From Polyangia bacterium (GTDB taxonomy: Bacteria > Myxococcota_A > Polyangia > Nannocystales > Nannocystaceae), in assembly GCA_030424595.1 (NCBI GenBank), contig JAUHWG010000011.1, forward strand, positions 129,130 through 193,129: DNA of 64,000 nucleotides, written 5' to 3'. Within the stretch, counting starts at the first letter, position 1, and each line of letters opens with the position of its first letter. This document shows positions 36,912 to 44,760 of this stretch, in pieces. A model generated the notes under the pieces. It had not been told where the DNA came from and made no database searches. It saw nothing but the letters and a program-made list of their open reading frames with translations. A program made the position numbers and the translations under genes.

Positions 36912-38606
36912 ATGTCGTCGATCCTGATCATTGATGACGAGGACAACTACCTCGAGCTTTGCCGGCGATATATGCCGGAGCACGACTTTCTCCCGCCTGC
37001 GCGGAGCTATCGGGACGCCGCGGCGGTGCTCCGTCAACGGGCTCAGGAGATCGATCTCGTCCTCCTGGACGTCCACTTCAACATCGACGAGGAGGAGCTG
37101 CTCCCCGCCGACAAGGCGCCGCTCTTCGCCCGCAGTGATCGCCGCCGGGTGCTGGATCGTCTCTGTCGGACCCAGGGATTGCTCATTCTCGATCGGATCC
37201 GCGCCGATTACCCCGATCTGCCGCTCATCGTGATGACCTCGCGGGATGATCTCCCGCTCGAGGTCGACGCGGAGCGCCTCCACGCTGAGGATTACACCTA
37301 CCTCCTCGATGACGATTACCTCGACGCTCGCTCTCTGCGATTGCAGATTGAGGGGATCCTCGCCCGTCGGGAGCGCCCATCGGCGGAGGAGAGCGGCCCC
37401 TTCTATTGGGGGACGACCCCGGCGATGCTCAACCTCCGCCGCCGCCTCTCGATCCTCGCCCGCGGTCGCCTGCCGATCATCGTCCAGGGCGCCACCGGCA
37501 CCGGCAAGAGCCTGGTCGTCCGCGAACATGTCCACCCGCACTCGCGGCGCTCCGGGCCCTTCGTCGCGGTCGATCTGTCGACGATCCCCAGCGATCTGAT
37601 GGCGGCGCATCTCTTCGGCGTGACCAAGGGCGCCTACACTGGGGCGACGAGCTCCCGCGACGGCGTTCTCGCCCAGGCCGACGGCGGTACGCTCTTTCTC
37701 GACGAGATCGGCAACCTCAGCCTCGAGCTGCAAAAGTCGCTGCTCCTCGTCCTTCAGGAGGGGAGCTACCGTCCGGTCGGCTCCGTCAAGGAGCGCAGCG
37801 TCGACATCAAGCTGGTGGTCGCGACCAACGAGGATCTCGCGACGCTGGTCCGCGAGGGTCGCTTTCGCGAAGACCTCTACATGCGCCTCAACCCCGCGAC
37901 CGCGGTGACGCTCGCGAGCCTCGCCGACCGCCGCGACGACTTCCACGAGCTCTTGAAGTTCTTCGTCCGCAGGGTCGCCTCCGAGGCCTACAACCGCGAT
38001 CTCGTCCTCCAGTACGCCGAGCAGCGGGGGTTGATGCTGCCGAGCGGGAAGGGACCGCTGCCGGTGAGCGTTGGTTCGACGGTGCCCACGCGCTCCGACA
38101 GCACGCGGATCCATTTCCTCTTCCACCCCAGCTCCCTCAAGCTGCTGCGCGGGTTCGACTGGCCGGGGAATTTTCGCCAGTTCGAGATGACCCTGTCCAA
38201 CCTCGTCACCTTCACGCTGGTCGAGCTGGTCGAGCGGGCGTCGCAGGTCGAGCCCGAGGATCCGGGGCAGGCGAGCCGCCCGGACGTCATCCCGATCCCG
38301 GCGAAGACGGTCAACGATCTCCTGCGGCCGATGGCGAAGGCCCATCGTCGCGAGAGCGACGTGCCTGTCGATGAGGGCGAGGGCCGTCCCGTCGGAGTGC
38401 GGGTCTGCTCCGCAGACTCCCTCAACGCGGTCTCCTGCGCCGTCGAGCGGCAGTACCTGGAGGCGCTCTACCGCGACAGCGACGGCGATCTCGGGCAGAT
38501 GGGCCTGTGGCTCCTCGACAATGACGGGGCAGGGCGGAAGATCCAGCTGCGGATGAACCAGCTCGGGATCAAGCTGCGCTCGCTGAAGCGCAAGCGGGGA
38601 GATTGA
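36912..38606 (+). CDS. Sigma-54-dependent transcriptional regulator (atypical N-terminal receiver-like domain, AAA+ sigma-54 interaction domain, C-terminal Fis-type HTH)
   Basis: ILIIDDE...LVLLDVHF receiver-like. Walker A GATGTGKS. GAYTGA (GAFTGA equivalent). GGTLFLDEIG. C-terminal RKIQLRMNQLGIKLRSLKRK Fis-type HTH. Confidence 0.85.
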   Translation: MSSILIIDDEDNYLELCRRYMPEHDFLPPARSYRDAAAVLRQRAQEIDLVLLDVHFNIDEEELLPADKAPLFARSDRRRVLDRLCRTQGLLILDRIRADYPDLPLIVMTSRDDLPLEVDAERLHAEDYTYLLDDDYLDARSLRLQIEGILARRERPSAEESGPFYWGTTPAMLNLRRRLSILARGRLPIIVQGATGTGKSLVVREHVHPHSRRSGPFVAVDLSTIPSDLMAAHLFGVTKGAYTGATSSRDGVLAQADGGTLFLDEIGNLSLELQKSLLLVLQEGSYRPVGSVKERSVDIKLVVATNEDLATLVREGRFREDLYMRLNPATAVTLASLADRRDDFHELLKFFVRRVASEAYNRDLVLQYAEQRGLMLPSGKGPLPVSVGSTVPTRSDSTRIHFLFHPSSLKLLRGFDWPGNFRQFEMTLSNLVTFTLVELVERASQVEPEDPGQASRPDVIPIPAKTVNDLLRPMAKAHRRESDVPVDEGEGRPVGVRVCSADSLNAVSCAVERQYLEALYRDSDGDLGQMGLWLLDNDGAGRKIQLRMNQLGIKLRSLKRKRGD

Positions 38607-38645
38607 TGTTGGGGGCGCTCTACCTCGATGGCGGCGATCTCGGGC

Positions 38646-38727
38646 CCTTGCGCCTGTGGCCCCAGCTGTCGGCGAACCAGGTCGGGAGTGGGCTGCGCTC
38701 GTCGCAGCGCGAGCGGGGAGCTTGATG
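38646..38727 (+). repeat. Degenerate second copy (~80% identical) of the last ~80 nt of the sigma-54 regulator gene, including a stop-equivalent; it is intergenic
   Basis: 38553-38606 (..atgaaccagctcgggatcaagctgcgctcgctgaagcgcaagcggggagattga) versus 38672-38724 (..gcgaaccaggtcgggagtgggctgcgctcgtcgcagcgcgagcggggagcttga). Read in the same frame this gives LRSSQRERGA* versus LRSLKRKRGD*. Confidence 0.7.
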
Positions 38728-41661
38728 TCTCGGGCGATGCAGCTCGCCGCCGCGCTGTGGCTCGTCGCAGGGACCGCCAGCGCAGCGCCGCCGGAGAGTC
38801 CCGGCTTCTCGCTGCCGCGGCCGCCAGCCCTGGAGGGCGACACCGAGGGGACGTCCGGGACCGACTCCGACACAGGTGAGGAGATCGATCCCGAGGTGCT
38901 CCAGGAGCAACGCCAGCTCGAGTTCGATCTTCACCTCTTCCGCGCTCAGCGGCTTGAGCGTGAGGGGAAGATCGACGACGGTATCCGCGAGTACACGGCC
39001 GCGCTCAAGCTCCAGTCGGGCGATCCCGGGGCTCTCCGCGGCCGGGCCAAGCTCCGGTTCAAGCGCACCCGCAAGGGGCAGTGTCCGCGCCGGGCGATCG
39101 AGGATCTCCGGCTGCTGCGGCTCTACGATCCCGCGGGGACGTGGAACGAAGAGCGGGCGACGATCCTCGAGTGGATGGCGCTCTGCGAAGATCGCTACCG
39201 TCGCGAGCGCCTCGACCTCGCGCTGGAGCTCGGCGAAGACGATCCGGCGGCGAGCTATCGGCCGCCGGGGATCCGCTACACGATCGCCGCGCTCCAGACG
39301 GAAGAGGCGGAGCGGGCGGGCCCCGGGCGCGACGGCCAGGAGCTCCGCGACGCCGCGCTTCTCCAGCTCGAGCGCTATCGTCAGGAGTGTTCAGAGGGGG
39401 GACGCCGGCCGAAAGCGGCGGCGCTTAGCCTCCAGGCCGACCTCTATCGCGCCCGGGGGGACATCTCCGAGGCGATCGCGGTCTATCGCGAGTTGGTCGC
39501 GCTCCACCCCGGTGTGCCGGCGGCGGCCGAGGCTGAGCGGGTCGTCGCCGAGCTCCAGCTCGAGGTCGAGCTCACCCGCTTAGAGAAGGAGCAGGGCGGG
39601 CGACCGTCGGAGCGGGCGGAGGCCAGCTACCGGATCGCGGCGGTCGCCCTGCGGCGCGGAGAGCTCGCGAGCGCGGAGGCTGAGCTGCGCAAGGCGATCG
39701 ACGACTCGCCGTGGTTTCCGAAGGCCCACTACCTGCTCGGGCTCGTCCACGCCAAGACGCGCCGCTTCACCGACGCCGTCGAGGAGCTGAAGATGGCGGT
39801 CCGGATGGACCGCTACGACCACGAGGCGCACATCGCCCTTGGTCTGCTCTACAAGAAGGAATTCTCCGGCGCCGAGGATGCCGCGGCGATCGAGCACCTC
39901 GAGCGAGCGCTGGTCCTGCGGCCGGACCTGAACAACCTCCACCTCCTCTTGGGCGAGCTCTACGCCCGCAGCGATCGCGATCTGGCCCGTCGTCACTACG
40001 AGCAGTTTCTCCAGCGGGCAGGCGAGGATGATCCCGATCGGGGCTTCGCCGAGGGGGCGCTGCAAAACCTCAGCCATGAGCTGCGGGTGGAGGAGCCTCT
40101 CTTTGAGATCCAGCCGCCCAGCGATCTGAGGCGCCTCGATCCTGGTCTGCAGAGGATGATCAACGAGGCCTACCTTCGCCACGAGGACGACGAGGACTGG
40201 GCCCAGGCCGAGCGGATCCTCGAGGCGGCGCGGGCCAAGTACCCGGATGAGCCCCAGGTGCTCAACGAGCTGGCGATGGTCGCCTACGCGGACGGTCGTC
40301 CCGGCGATGCTCGACAGTTTTGGGAGCAGAGCCTGGTCATGGACGCGGAGCAGGTCGACGTCCACGAGCGCCTCGGGATCCTCCTGGCGAGCGAGCTGCC
40401 GGAGCAGGCGATAGGCCACCTCGAGCGGGCTGCGGCGCTCGGGTCGAGCAACGCGCGCTTTCGCCTGGCGTCGCTGATGTGGGCGGAGAACGACCTCTTT
40501 CGCGCCTCGGACGTGCTCGATCGCTACCTCGGCGAGGCCGGGCCCTACGATCTCTACTGGGATCGGGCGCAGGTCCTCCGCGAGCGGATGGACCGGCTCT
40601 TCTTTCGGGTCTACCTGATCGCCGGCGGCGTTCTCCTCATCCTCCTGCTGATCCCGGCGGGGATGGTCTTCCGTCGCCTCCGCGGAGCCTCGCTAGAGCA
40701 GCTCTTGGCCCGCGCGCCGAAGTCCTTCCCGGAGGTCGCCCGGATCCTCTCGCTCATCCGCCACGAGATCCTCAAGCACAACACCGCCTTCCTCATCGAC
40801 GTCGGCCGCGCGCTCGAGTTCGACGAGCCGGACGCCGAGGTGCGGGCGGCGATCGTCGCCCGCAGGCTCTTCGGCGACAGCGATGAGCGGCGGCGCAAGG
40901 CGGCGGATCTGCGGATCGCGTCGAGCCGTGACCAGGGGATCTACGGCCGCTTTCTCGGCTACGTCGAGGAGCTGCAGAAGGTCGCGCGGACCCACGGGGT
41001 CACCCTCAACCTCTACCGCAAGGACCCGATCTTCTCGCCGATGATCCGCGCCTTCGAGGATCTGCGCGAGCTCGGAGATCTCCAGCGTCGCGGGAGCGAT
41101 CATCGCAGCCGCAAGCTCGACCTCGCGCAGCGGCTGACCCGCTCCGGTCATGAGCTCGGCCGGCGGGCGTTCGAGCGCCTCAGCTCGCTCATCCAGTCGC
41201 TCTGCGTCGTCGACGTGACGCCGACGATGATCCGCGAGGTCTTCGGCCTCGTCGCGGCCGAGTCCCACTTCGCCCAGGCGAAGATCGCCGACGTGGCCGT
41301 GGTGGGGGAGGGGGCGCAGATCCGGGTGTTTCGCACCGATCTGGAGGACATCCTGACCAACGTGCTCCGCAACTCGCTCCACTCGAGCGTGCTCTACGGG
41401 CCCTCGCCTGCGCAGATCGGGGTCGCCTTGAGCACCGAGGTCGATGAGATCACAGGCCTCAGCACCTTGGCCATCCGGATCCAGGATCGTTCGACCGAAA
41501 AGCTCTCCAACGAGATGCTCCGCGGCCGCTATGTTGAGCGAGGGATGGGGATTACGGTCGACCTGCTCTCGCGTTACGATGGGGCGATCGCGGTCGAGCC
41601 GGAGCCCGGGTGGGAGAAGGCCGTCGTGTTGCGCTTCTTCACCGTGGAGGACACCCCGTGA
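38725..41661 (+). CDS. Sensor histidine-kinase-like protein: signal peptide, large periplasmic TPR domain, one TM helix, cytoplasmic HisKA-like + HATPase_c
   Basis: Signal LAAALWLVAGTASA. Multiple TPR-like repeats (AHYLLGLVHAKTRRFTDAVEELKMAV, AHIALGLLYKK). TM VYLIAGGVLLILLLIPAGMVF. SLIRHEILKHN (H-box-like). LTNVLRNSLHSS (N-box). ERGMGITVDLLSRYDGAIAV (G2). Confidence 0.72.
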   Translation: MSRAMQLAAALWLVAGTASAAPPESPGFSLPRPPALEGDTEGTSGTDSDTGEEIDPEVLQEQRQLEFDLHLFRAQRLEREGKIDDGIREYTAALKLQSGDPGALRGRAKLRFKRTRKGQCPRRAIEDLRLLRLYDPAGTWNEERATILEWMALCEDRYRRERLDLALELGEDDPAASYRPPGIRYTIAALQTEEAERAGPGRDGQELRDAALLQLERYRQECSEGGRRPKAAALSLQADLYRARGDISEAIAVYRELVALHPGVPAAAEAERVVAELQLEVELTRLEKEQGGRPSERAEASYRIAAVALRRGELASAEAELRKAIDDSPWFPKAHYLLGLVHAKTRRFTDAVEELKMAVRMDRYDHEAHIALGLLYKKEFSGAEDAAAIEHLERALVLRPDLNNLHLLLGELYARSDRDLARRHYEQFLQRAGEDDPDRGFAEGALQNLSHELRVEEPLFEIQPPSDLRRLDPGLQRMINEAYLRHEDDEDWAQAERILEAARAKYPDEPQVLNELAMVAYADGRPGDARQFWEQSLVMDAEQVDVHERLGILLASELPEQAIGHLERAAALGSSNARFRLASLMWAENDLFRASDVLDRYLGEAGPYDLYWDRAQVLRERMDRLFFRVYLIAGGVLLILLLIPAGMVFRRLRGASLEQLLARAPKSFPEVARILSLIRHEILKHNTAFLIDVGRALEFDEPDAEVRAAIVARRLFGDSDERRRKAADLRIASSRDQGIYGRFLGYVEELQKVARTHGVTLNLYRKDPIFSPMIRAFEDLRELGDLQRRGSDHRSRKLDLAQRLTRSGHELGRRAFERLSSLIQSLCVVDVTPTMIREVFGLVAAESHFAQAKIADVAVVGEGAQIRVFRTDLEDILTNVLRNSLHSSVLYGPSPAQIGVALSTEVDEITGLSTLAIRIQDRSTEKLSNEMLRGRYVERGMGITVDLLSRYDGAIAVEPEPGWEKAVVLRFFTVEDTP

Positions 41662-42137
41662 GCGTCAACGCCACCGAGATCGAGGTGCTGGTCGTCGAAG
41701 ACGGCAACGAGTACCTGACCAACCTCAGCACCTTCGTCGCCGGCGGGATCCACTACACACAGGCGCAAAACGGCGCGGACGCCTGTGCGATGGCGTTGCA
41801 GCTCCGGCCGGACATCATCTATCTCGACATGCGCTTCGATCGGATCCCCTTCGAGGAGCTGCTCGGCGACATGGTCTCCGCGACCGCTCGCTTTAACGGT
41901 GACGTCGCCCGGGCCCGGACCTTTCTGCAGGACAACCAGGGGCTCTTCATCCTCCGCGCGCTGCGTGATGCCGGCTACCGCGGCCCGGTGATCCTGTCCT
42001 ACGACTTCGGCGGTGAGGAGCGGCGCTTCCGCGCCCTCTCGGCCAAGGACCCTGCCCTCGACTACTGTCCAGACTACGCCGACGCGACGACGATCCGCGC
42101 GGCGATCATGAAGGCCGCGAAGCGCGAGCCCCACTGA
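41658..42137 (+). CDS. Single-domain response-regulator-like protein (REC), translationally coupled to the upstream kinase (GTGA overlap)
   Basis: EVLVVEDGNEY...DIIYLDMRFD...FILRAL...VILSYD; acidic pocket and phospho-Asp context present. GTG start at 41658. Confidence 0.6.
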   Translation: MSVNATEIEVLVVEDGNEYLTNLSTFVAGGIHYTQAQNGADACAMALQLRPDIIYLDMRFDRIPFEELLGDMVSATARFNGDVARARTFLQDNQGLFILRALRDAGYRGPVILSYDFGGEERRFRALSAKDPALDYCPDYADATTIRAAIMKAAKREPH

Positions 42138-42800: not shown

Positions 42801-42980
42801 CATGCGAATCATCGGAACTCTGATCCTCGGGGCGTCCCTGATCGGCCTCAGCGGTTGCGCGGAGCAGCCCGGCAAGAAGAAGGAAGAGAAGACTCAGCCG
42901 ATCGACGACAAGCAGGCTGACGTGAACAAGGTCGACGACGGCAAGTCCGACGACAAGAAGGCCGACGACAAGAAAGAGTA
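42801..42980 (+). CDS. Small lipoprotein (59 aa), Lys/Asp-rich
   Basis: Strong SD (AAGGAGA) 8 nt upstream. MRIIGTLILGASLIGLSGC lipobox. It is below the ORF-track size cutoff. Confidence 0.5.
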
Positions 42981-43004
42981 GCCTCGGGCGGACTCTTTCG
43001 GAGA

Positions 43005-43027
43005 AAGGCGCCCAGGACGGGCGCCTT
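43005..43027 (+). terminator. Perfect 9-bp GC-rich hairpin (aaggcgccc-aggac-gggcgcctt) downstream of the small lipoprotein gene
   Basis: Read directly from the sequence. There is no U-tract, which is common in high-GC genomes. Confidence 0.4.
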
Positions 43028-43154
43028 CACGGGTCCAGGGCGCTCGCCTTGGCCGAGCTCATGGACGATGCGACTTCCCCTCCGCCACCCTCCTCTCGGG
43101 CGTGATGCGCCCCTCCATCGTTGCGCTCACCTAGAGGCGCTCGCGGAGGCGGCG

Positions 43155-43994
43155 ATGGGCCTCGCCCTGCGGCCGGCGGCGACCGTCTTCACCGCGCGGC
43201 GCTCGCGGGGACGCTACGGCAACGCCCTCCAGTGGCACCTCGGCCTCGATCCCCACGACGGCCTGCCGCAGCTCGATTGGGAGGACCGGATCGAGCTGAA
43301 GATCATCACCGTGTGGCGCCGCGGCGGGAGGGTGGTCTGCGACAAGCTCAAGGTCTGCGATCTCGCCCACGACCCGTGGCACAAGCTCTCGAACGTTCTC
43401 TGGGTCTTCGTCGATCGCCTGACGCGAGTCGTCATCGGCCATCGTTTCACGCGTCTGGCCGGGGCTTCCCGGGAATTGCTCGAGACGAGCTGGCTCCTCG
43501 ATCCCCACTTCGACAGCCCCTCGCTCTTCGTCGAGGCGCGCGAGCAGGATGATCGCCAGGCGCCGGCCTACTACCTGTCGGCGCACTACCTTCGGGAGTC
43601 GGGGATCGTCCCCTCAGAGCTACCTGGGGTCTTCGCCTTTGATCCCAAGTGGATGCGAGAAGCACGGAGTAGCCATCGCGGTGCCGAGCCGCTCTTCACC
43701 CTCTGGAGGGGTCAGGCGGAGTCGGATCTCTGCTGTCCCCGCTGCGGAGGGCGGATCCGGACCGATCTCGGGACGGTCCGCGAGGTGGGCAGCGCACCCG
43801 CGGTGCACGCCCTCGCAGGGGGGACGGTGTGTGCACTTCGCGCTCACTGCGTGATCGATGTTGGGCGCCTGCCGATAGGTGAGCACCATCCTGGACGGCG
43901 CGAGCTCGAGGAGGCCCTCGAGGATCGGTGTCCACCGGAGCGCGTTTGGCGTCTGACCGATCGGGTGATGGAGCCCGAGGACCACCTGCACTAG
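43155..43994 (+). CDS. MutH/Sau3AI-family endonuclease-like protein with a C-terminal Cys4 zinc-ribbon region
   Basis: RGRYGNALQWHLGLDPHDGLPQLDWEDRIELKIITVW aligns to E. coli MutH [36 protein letters not shown] (D-x6-7-E-x-K). HKLSNVLWVFVD aligns to MutH HKLKRVLWIPVE. CCPRCGGRIR...CALRAHC is the zinc ribbon. GGAGG lies 6 nt upstream of the ATG at 43155. Confidence 0.7.
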   Translation: MGLALRPAATVFTARRSRGRYGNALQWHLGLDPHDGLPQLDWEDRIELKIITVWRRGGRVVCDKLKVCDLAHDPWHKLSNVLWVFVDRLTRVVIGHRFTRLAGASRELLETSWLLDPHFDSPSLFVEAREQDDRQAPAYYLSAHYLRESGIVPSELPGVFAFDPKWMREARSSHRGAEPLFTLWRGQAESDLCCPRCGGRIRTDLGTVREVGSAPAVHALAGGTVCALRAHCVIDVGRLPIGEHHPGRRELEEALEDRCPPERVWRLTDRVMEPEDHLH

Positions 43995-44148: not shown

Positions 44149-44200
44149 GCAGACCGGTGCAGACCGGTGCAGACCGGTGCAGACCGGTGCAGACCGGTCA
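44149..44200. repeat. Minisatellite: 5 tandem units of the 10 bp gcagaccggt
   Basis: Read directly from the sequence. It is ~150 nt downstream of the MutH-like gene. Confidence 0.85.
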
Positions 44201-44299
44201 TGGTCCCCGGTCGGCTCGTTCGCGAGCTGCGAAGCCGAGACTCCATCAACCAAAACGAGAACCCAGGACAACTGACCAAGTCGTCCTGGGTCCCCCCCC

Positions 44300-44760
44300 A
44301 GTTCTAAGTTGTTTCAGCACCGACCATGCGTAGGCGCTATCTGCGGAAAAACTATGTTCAAGCTAGCGGAAGACCAAGTTCAGGCGAAGGAGTAAGGGAA
44401 AGCCAAGATCTAGTCGTTAAGGAGGAAACGAACCGAAGTGAGGAGCGGGGGCGCTCAAGCGGTAAGCGAGCGCCGAAAGATAAGGGCAAGTCAGAAGGTA
44501 CGAAGGCGAGGCTAGGATAGAAAAGGTGCCAAGCTAGCGAACGGAAGTCTTGCAGATAGGGCCCGTCATTGACGGACAGTCCCGGTAGATGCAGACGCAG
44601 TGCCATCTTGTCAAAGTGTTGAAATTATTGAAGATGGTGTCCTGGCATTGTCCGACGTGTCCTACCCTGTGCCCTAGGTATGACTCCCATGTCATGATCC
44701 CCGCCCTGTCACGGTCGGCGCCCATGACATCGATGTCATAGCTGCGGCATCGAGGTCAGA
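44300..44760. other. Purine-rich (AG-rich) low-GC non-coding island upstream of argC
   Basis: Runs such as aaggagtaagggaaagccaag, gttaaggaggaaacgaaccgaagtgaggag, gaaagataagggcaagtcagaaggtacgaaggcgaggctaggatagaaaagg. The only ORF (44326..44520) has a GC3 pattern foreign to this genome. An AT-rich stretch tcaaagtgttgaaattattgaagatgg lies at 44611-44637. Confidence 0.6.

Follow-up and report, generated by a model that had tools for sequence, protein, structure and literature searches.

The 64,000-nt window analysed here (positions 129,130 to 193,129 of contig JAUHWG010000011.1, from a Polyangia bacterium of the order Nannocystales; guanine-cytosine (GC) content 68.7%) harbors a gene for a predicted MutH/Sau3AI-like nuclease with an additional C-terminal Cys/His domain, and its product represents a nuclease family that is lineage-restricted and previously unannotated. 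An earlier, sequence-only reading of this DNA had recognised an intact open reading frame (ORF) ending at 43994 and had placed its start at the ATG at 43155, behind a good Shine-Dalgarno sequence; the end is confirmed, and the start has to be moved. An ATG at 43068, upstream of the other and in frame with it, gives a product of 308 amino acids (aa). A start codon (ATG, GTG or, once, CTG) was observed exactly at the motif M/V/L-RLPLRH in 54 of the 56 complete orthologues from species-level genomes, and in the remaining two the tblastn match starts later, with the same motif visible just upstream and in frame. The homologue search yielded 215 homologues, most of them 306–315 aa long, to which the N-terminus MRLPLRHPP...RCAHLEALA is common. 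The ratio of nonsynonymous to synonymous substitution rates (dN/dS) is about 0.07 for the first 29 codons against three relatives and 0.08–0.22 for the whole gene against loci L008, L009 and L010, and the first 29 residues are folded with a predicted local distance difference test (pLDDT) of 89–95 in the AlphaFold2 model, which was built from 24 homologues and reaches a pLDDT of 91.5 and a predicted template modelling score (pTM) of 0.91 overall. Because the orthologue starts are conserved, the first 29 codons show low dN/dS and their fold is confident, the coding sequence (CDS) is set as given in Table 1, and the supposed Shine-Dalgarno sequence, GGAGG at 43147–43151, falls within it, across codons A27-E28-A29.

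Table 1. Genes and features of the nuclease locus, in window coordinates
Feature	Coordinates	Strand	Remarks
Upstream block, syntenic across the order	36912..42137
Sigma-54 activator	36912..38606
Tetratricopeptide repeat (TPR) protein	38656..41661		~1000 aa
Receiver-domain protein	41610..42137		domain match weak
Small lipoprotein ORF	42802..42981		59 aa
15-nt repeat in small lipoprotein ORF	42903..42974		4.8 copies
9-bp GC-rich hairpin between small lipoprotein ORF and CDS	43005..43027	+
Full CDS	43068..43994	+	308 aa + stop
N-terminal 29 codons (MRLPLRHPP...RC19AHLEALAEAA)	43068..43154	+	includes invariant C19
MutH/Sau3AI-like PD-(D/E)XK nuclease domain	43125..43607	+	residues ~20–180
Q55, position of MutH E56	43230..43232	+	E in outgroup nucleases; invariant Q in family
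Catalytic motif D70-W-E-D-R-I-E76-L-K78	43275..43301	+	invariant 57/57
K106, equivalent of MutH K116	43383..43385	+	alignment to MutH
Y168-Y169 in APAYYLS	43569..43574	+	Y169 in MutH Y212 column by alignment only; invariant in 57
Family-specific C-terminal domain	43614..43991	+	residues 183–308
Cys/His cluster C223-x2-C226 ... H247 ... C255-x4-H260, presumed Zn site	43734..43847	+	five residues invariant 57/57
C-terminal tail E302-P-x-D305-H306-x-H308	43971..43991	+	invariant in orthologue alignment
Tandem repeat, 10-bp unit	44149..44198		this genome only
Candidate CU-rich non-coding RNA	44250..44579	-	purine-rich island of + strand
Hairpin with U-rich tail, terminator-like	44257..44295	-	conserved, covarying
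Purine-rich low-GC island	~44300–44700
Sigma-54-type -24/-12 element TGGCAC-N5-CTGCA	44590..44605	-
Palindromes ATGAC-N6-GTCAT	44680..44695 and 44724..44739		16 bp each
argC start codon (ATG)	44831

Nuclease domain and C-terminal Cys/His domain

Membership of the protein in the MutH/Sau3AI superfamily is supported at the level of the fold: with the predicted model, MutH, the methyl-directed mismatch-repair nickase of E. coli and H. influenzae (PDB 2AOQ/2AOR), was the best structural match in the fold search, and the nuclease domain takes the MutH/Sau3AI variant of the PD-(D/E)XK fold. Profile-profile comparison agreed, hhalign aligning the family plus its outgroup (described below) to a MutH profile over 122 columns with a probability of 86.3% and an E-value of 4.8e-6; that profile is shallow, the MutH homologue search having given only proteins at least 83% identical, and with one MutH sequence alone the comparison gave a weak E-value of 0.053, becoming meaningful only after the outgroup and the MutH profile were added. 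On the other hand, the protein fails both curated MutH models, at about 19% identity to MutH: no Pfam family matched at E ≤ 10, PF02976 and PF15515 included, and the score for NF003458, the NCBIfam MutH equivalog, was 11.3 bits (E 0.13), with the cut-off at 243. PADLOC and PHROGs profile searches returned nothing significant, and no nuclease in PDB was matched by sequence or by profile. The significant MutH/Sau3AI match anticipated by the sequence-only reading was thus obtained by fold search and profile-profile comparison and not with the curated models.

The D-x-E-x-K/ELK and HKL..VLW motifs noticed earlier are present, with DWEDRIELK and HKLSNVLW aligning to D70, E77-L-K79 and H115-K116...VLW of MutH, and the D-(X)n-E-X-K motif stands at the same positions in both proteins, which also have in common a KG.(G) N-terminal motif. 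Both hhalign and a MAFFT alignment with E. coli MutH place D70, E76 and K78 on MutH D70, E77 and K79, and K106 on K116, the lysine by which the attacking water is positioned (bioRxiv 10.64898/2026.04.21.719898); Y169 shares a column with Y212, the C-arm residue by which MutH senses methylation (PMC3848065), in the MAFFT alignment, the hhalign alignment ending at residue 144. Among 57 orthologues 54 residues are invariant, D70, E76, K78, K106 and Y169 included, so that the catalytic D, E and K, on whose conservation the sequence-only reading had made its assignment depend, are retained throughout. The strict invariance of the catalytic residues across proteins of 45–83% identity argues for a working nuclease. 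Two further MutH positions are changed in the family: E56, a helix-borne acidic residue that is the second metal ligand of MutH, is replaced by an invariant Gln, the nearest outgroup proteins retaining Glu, and the H112 column mostly holds a conserved Asp. Compared with MutH, the Nannocystales protein adds about 20 N-terminal residues and a 125-aa C-terminal domain, and its hosts belong to the Myxococcota whereas those of MutH are Gammaproteobacteria; both genes are chromosomal, single-copy and unlinked to a methylase. The literature search found nothing relevant on MutH-like/zinc proteins, on MutH in myxobacteria or on Nannocystis methylomes.

The C-terminal domain extends past the end of the MutH alignment (MAFFT). 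In the 57 orthologues its invariant residues are C223, C226, H247, C255, H260, R295, E302, P303, D305, H306 and H308, and C19 of the N-terminal extension is invariant as well, while C222 and C261 are seen in just 1 and 2 of the 57 sequences, respectively, those of this genome and its nearest relatives. The sequence-only reading had described this region as a Cys4 zinc ribbon; an extra region of metal-binding type is indeed there, and the ribbon has to be given up, since C222 and C261 are unconserved, C223-x2-C226 is the sole conserved knuckle where a zinc ribbon has two (CxxC/CxxH), carried on two beta-hairpins, and the fold search gave no structural match of the domain to any solved structure. 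No zinc-ribbon profile or fold matched significantly, the sequence searches giving just scattered sub-threshold zinc-knuckle matches around CPRCGG, and no modified-base reader (SRA, PUA/EVE, YTH) matched the domain by sequence or by fold. The region is best described as a Cys/His domain without a recognisable fold, presumably zinc-binding to judge from its conserved residues, and it may represent a new kind of modified-base reader. In Sau3AI (a GATC Type II enzyme; PDB 4PXG, 7XM0) the C-terminal domain is a second MutH-like fold, whereas the Cys/His domain is unrelated to it and has no structural neighbour, so that a tandem MutH-like architecture is lacking; in further difference from Sau3AI, the gene has no linked cognate methylase and is not mobile.

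Distribution, gene order and methyltransferase context

The gene was detected at 61 loci in GTDB species genomes, all of them from Nannocystales and one per assembly in 61 different assemblies; the carriers include Nannocystis exedens, N. pusilla, N. punicea, N. radixulma and N. bainbridge; Enhygromyxa salina; Plesiocystis pacifica; Paraliomyxa miuraensis; and metagenome-assembled genomes. When 1.84 billion representative proteins were scanned exhaustively with HMMER, only 31 matched, so the family is small and isolated, and no homologue was found in plasmids and phages. Gene order is kept on both sides of the nuclease gene: a sigma-54 activator, a TPR/ATPase protein, a response regulator, a 4HBT thioesterase and a small lipoprotein precede it, and a 500–900-nt spacer, argC/argB, an M20 peptidase and a CNNM transporter follow. 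By tblastn, the TPR/ATPase gene was recovered at 52 of the 61 loci, the response regulator at 53, the thioesterase at 52 and argB at 50. In a few genomes synteny around the nuclease is broken: L012 has its arg genes upstream of the nuclease and in inverted orientation, and in L018, L022, L024 and L039 no arg genes were detected downstream of it. Within the window PADLOC gave only generic matches, to kinases and sigma-54 activators, and a defence island was considered and rejected, the neighbourhood being made up of housekeeping genes. The nuclease gene is a conserved single-copy chromosomal gene of the order Nannocystales, vertically inherited, and not a mobile defence gene. The sequence-only reading had left the choice between a stand-alone defence gene and a domesticated nuclease; the former is disfavoured, and a restriction nuclease recruited to a cellular function is favoured, because single-copy synteny extends across the order, dN/dS is low and neither mobility nor a defence context was found.

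The absence of an adjacent methyltransferase, noted earlier, was borne out on a wider scale. The methyltransferase motifs [DNS]PP[YFW] and PCQ occur in none of the genes of the window that are supported by GC content at third codon positions (GC3); the Pfam and PADLOC matches shown for the genes of the window include no methyltransferase family; no homologue of the outgroup-type methyltransferase lies within 4 kb at any of the 61 related loci; and the gene lists of L001–L004 contain no methyltransferase. GATC occurs at an observed/expected ratio of 1.04 in the window, and GATC, CCWGG and CCSGG are not avoided (1.04–1.08) in 617 kb of Nannocystales DNA, comprising the window and 65 loci of the order. 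The GATC-type specificity suggested by the sequence-only reading finds no support, and because none of the three sites is depleted, CTAG and AAGCTT alone being low, the palindrome statistics give no clue to the target site. In the same sample, the most depleted palindromes are AAGCTT (0.33) and CTAG (0.42) and the over-represented ones AATT (2.8) and TTAA (2.0), none of which is linked to the nuclease. The lack of a linked methylase together with sites that are not avoided therefore leads to three options, namely an unlinked protective modification, a modification-directed enzyme or latency. From the monomeric nicking-type enzymes BcnI/MvaI (PF15515) the protein differs in having neither a PF15515 match nor a linked methylase partner, with CCWGG/CCSGG not avoided.

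The only relatives found outside the family were four short nucleases from metagenomes (P0139, P0142, P0146 and P0147; 157–235 aa) that consist of the nuclease core alone, match the family profile with E-values of 5e-19 to 4e-6 and give sub-threshold Pfam matches to MutH or MvaI_BcnI; a homologue search with P0139 returned only itself. The nuclease core is common to them and the family, as are the motifs KGR.G, D..EVK and YAWYL, whereas they are without the C-terminal domain and retain the Glu equivalent to E56. On all three outgroup contigs that are long enough, an N6_N4_Mtase gene adjoins the nuclease gene or lies within 2 kb of it, the fourth contig being too short. Because the outgroup sits beside these methyltransferase genes, the family appears to branch from ordinary Type II restriction-modification (R-M) nucleases. 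In two of the four, P0146 (locus L006) and P0142 (L069), an N-terminal Cys-rich segment (CPHCG...C..CR.C) was observed and none at the C-terminus, which suggests that metal-binding modules were added to the nuclease core independently.

Flanking DNA and a candidate minus-strand RNA

The small ORF upstream of the nuclease gene has a signal of the lipoprotein type (LSGC) and a Lys/Asp tail of low complexity that is encoded by the 15-nt repeat; ORFs of 49–65 aa lie at the same place in relatives, with poorly conserved sequence (found by tblastn at 9 of 61 loci). Between this ORF and the CDS the hairpin reported by the sequence-only reading as a strong terminator does exist; it has no U-tract, was missed by the terminator scan, and its region does not fold unusually (z = -1.6).

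Downstream of the gene, the 10-bp minisatellite is a perfect tandem repeat of GCAGACCGGT in five copies, which is absent at all 60 related loci examined, and about 250 nt around it are without counterpart in the aligned relatives. The purine-rich low-GC island noted earlier was likewise found, as a stretch with a GC fraction of about 0.52, and it is conserved in nearly all related loci, being missing in L024 and L039 and weak in L012. This island reads better on the minus strand, because a sigma-54 element, an A/T tract and palindromes upstream of that element, a hairpin at the end and a CU-rich RNA between them are all found in that orientation. The -24/-12 element has the consensus TGGC(C/A)C-N5-(C/A)TGCA across Nannocystales loci, with TGG-N9-TGC aligned in 50 of 53, and the sigma-54 activator of the upstream block could be the regulator of such a nearby promoter. 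The candidate non-coding RNA, about 330 nt long here and 258–478 nt across loci, is CU-rich and without a conserved ORF; 5-mers of the CUUGG/GCUUG/UGGCU type are about 9-fold enriched in it, with about 3.5 CUUGG per RNA, and no Rfam family matches it. The hairpin with its UUCUCGUUUU tail, at the end of the unit near the stop codon of the nuclease gene, resembles the terminator of this convergent transcript and may also stop transcription of the nuclease gene.

The two palindromes, 44 nt apart and kept in 53 loci, are placed like enhancers relative to the minus-strand sigma-54 element, 84 and 128 nt upstream of it, within a conserved 155-nt block that also holds the A/T-rich TTGAAATnATT tract and that is missing in L012, L024 and L039. 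They are also about 90–150 nt upstream of the argC ATG and so could be an arg operator. A plus-strand RNA or a CsrB-like GGA sponge was rejected for the island, as were ARG boxes for the palindromes upstream of argC, the minus-strand sigma-54 element and terminator fitting better in each case, and no convincing sigma-70-type promoter could be assigned on either strand. The candidate RNA is a feature separate from the nuclease, adjacency being the sole tie seen.

Proposed origin and function of the nuclease

The evidence tips modestly towards a predicted active sequence-specific endonuclease, most likely a monomeric nickase of the MutH/BcnI kind, that came from a Type II R-M system and now serves cellular DNA maintenance or repair. 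We infer nuclease activity, nicking, zinc binding, regulation and the cellular role from the fold, the residues, the distribution, the synteny and the outgroup context. Under this proposal, residues ~20–180 would form a MutH-type clamp in which D70, E76 and K78 together with K106 would carry out Mg2+-dependent phosphodiester hydrolysis, and the C-arm APAYYLS, with Y169 as the equivalent of MutH Y212, would sit in the base-reading pocket. The 125-aa Cys/His domain, probably zinc-bound, would pack on the nuclease with the conserved N- and C-terminal tails and might gate its activity or dock a partner, comparable to MutL on MutH or to Sau3AI's C-terminal effector domain. Both MutH and Sau3AI are latent and need allosteric activation, by MutL and by the C-terminal effector domain, respectively (bioRxiv 10.64898/2026.04.21.719898; PMC3848065), and by analogy the Cys/His domain and the conserved termini would be the obvious candidates for the control of latency. 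The gene would go back to a restriction endonuclease of Type II whose methyltransferase partner was lost, and would have been fixed in the Nannocystales ancestor as a chromosomal, vertically inherited gene with a role in DNA maintenance or repair and not in mobile defence.

Several observations weigh against this proposal. None of the curated MutH/Sau3AI profiles is significant for the protein; Q55 at the E56 position may mean that the catalytic chemistry is altered or weakened; an unlinked cognate methyltransferase may be encoded elsewhere in the genome; and the neighbouring genes (the thioesterase, the small lipoprotein and the arg genes) suggest no tie to DNA metabolism. The Gln is also what gives some substance to the idea that the nuclease fold is catalytically dead, or has lost most of its activity, and is now employed for sequence-specific DNA binding or for regulation; this would explain how the genome tolerates the gene without a methylase. 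Dead folds, however, usually lose their catalytic residues, whereas D70, E76, K78 and K106 are strictly invariant in the 57 orthologues (about 45–83% identical), and Gln is still able to ligate metal, so this alternative is considered quite improbable.

A solitary restriction enzyme in defence, either Type II with its methylase elsewhere or Type IV-like with the C-terminal domain reading modified foreign DNA, would be in keeping with a restriction-enzyme superfamily whose nearest relatives stand in R-M contexts, and the common candidate sites, not being avoided, fit either protection or modification dependence. Its vertical, order-wide inheritance, fixed synteny and strong purifying selection are unlike those of defence genes, however, and the gene shows neither the adjacent methyltransferase nor the patchy, mobile distribution of a Type II R-M endonuclease. 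No defence island surrounds it, with only generic PADLOC matches in the window, and no plasmid or phage copies were found. The extra C-terminal domain might act as a reader, but it is unlike known modification readers such as SRA or PUA, so that the fusion to a recognisable modified-base reader seen in Type IV restriction enzymes is missing; a defence role is accordingly regarded as unlikely. A functional analogue of MutH deserves a similarly low degree of belief. It would be a strand-discriminating nickase recruited by MutS/MutL or another repair machine, guided by an orphan methylase or strand mark and docked through its C-terminal module; MutH as the best structural match, the conserved catalytic residues and Y212-equivalent Tyr, the housekeeping-like distribution (order-wide and single-copy) and the lack of a linked methylase, as for mutH and dam in E. 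coli, all speak for it, and a latency of the MutH type would explain the tolerance of an unprotected genome. At hemimethylated GATC sites MutH nicks the strand without the methyl group, on activation by MutL, and it occurs together with Dam and with a MutL devoid of the endonuclease motif; the GATC frequencies given above are uninformative as to such nicking. To our knowledge, however, MutH-dependent repair is confined to some Gammaproteobacteria, other bacteria using the MutL endonuclease, and neither H112 nor E56 of MutH is conserved, the score against the NCBIfam MutH equivalog is far below its cut-off, and no mismatch-repair genes are among the gene annotations of the window.

MutH itself is believed to be a captured restriction nuclease. 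In a bolder reading, the Nannocystales gene would be a second, independent domestication outside the Gammaproteobacteria, a housekeeping nickase directed by a strand or mark, serving mismatch repair or some other repair pathway and controlled by the Cys/His domain; this reading is put forward tentatively and is rather doubtful. The standard example of a restriction-type nuclease recruited as a repair factor is MutH, believed to occur in some Gammaproteobacteria only, and the family described here provides a second lineage-wide, methylase-unlinked and strongly conserved MutH-fold nuclease, in an unrelated order and with a new accessory domain, so that the question of how a selfish nuclease becomes a cellular tool could be tested in a second system. 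Moreover, a site-specific nickase and a regulatory domain that binds metal, both of them new, might be obtained from the family, and about 215 proteins hitherto listed as hypothetical can at least be given an annotation as nucleases of the MutH/Sau3AI superfamily, with the start codon corrected.
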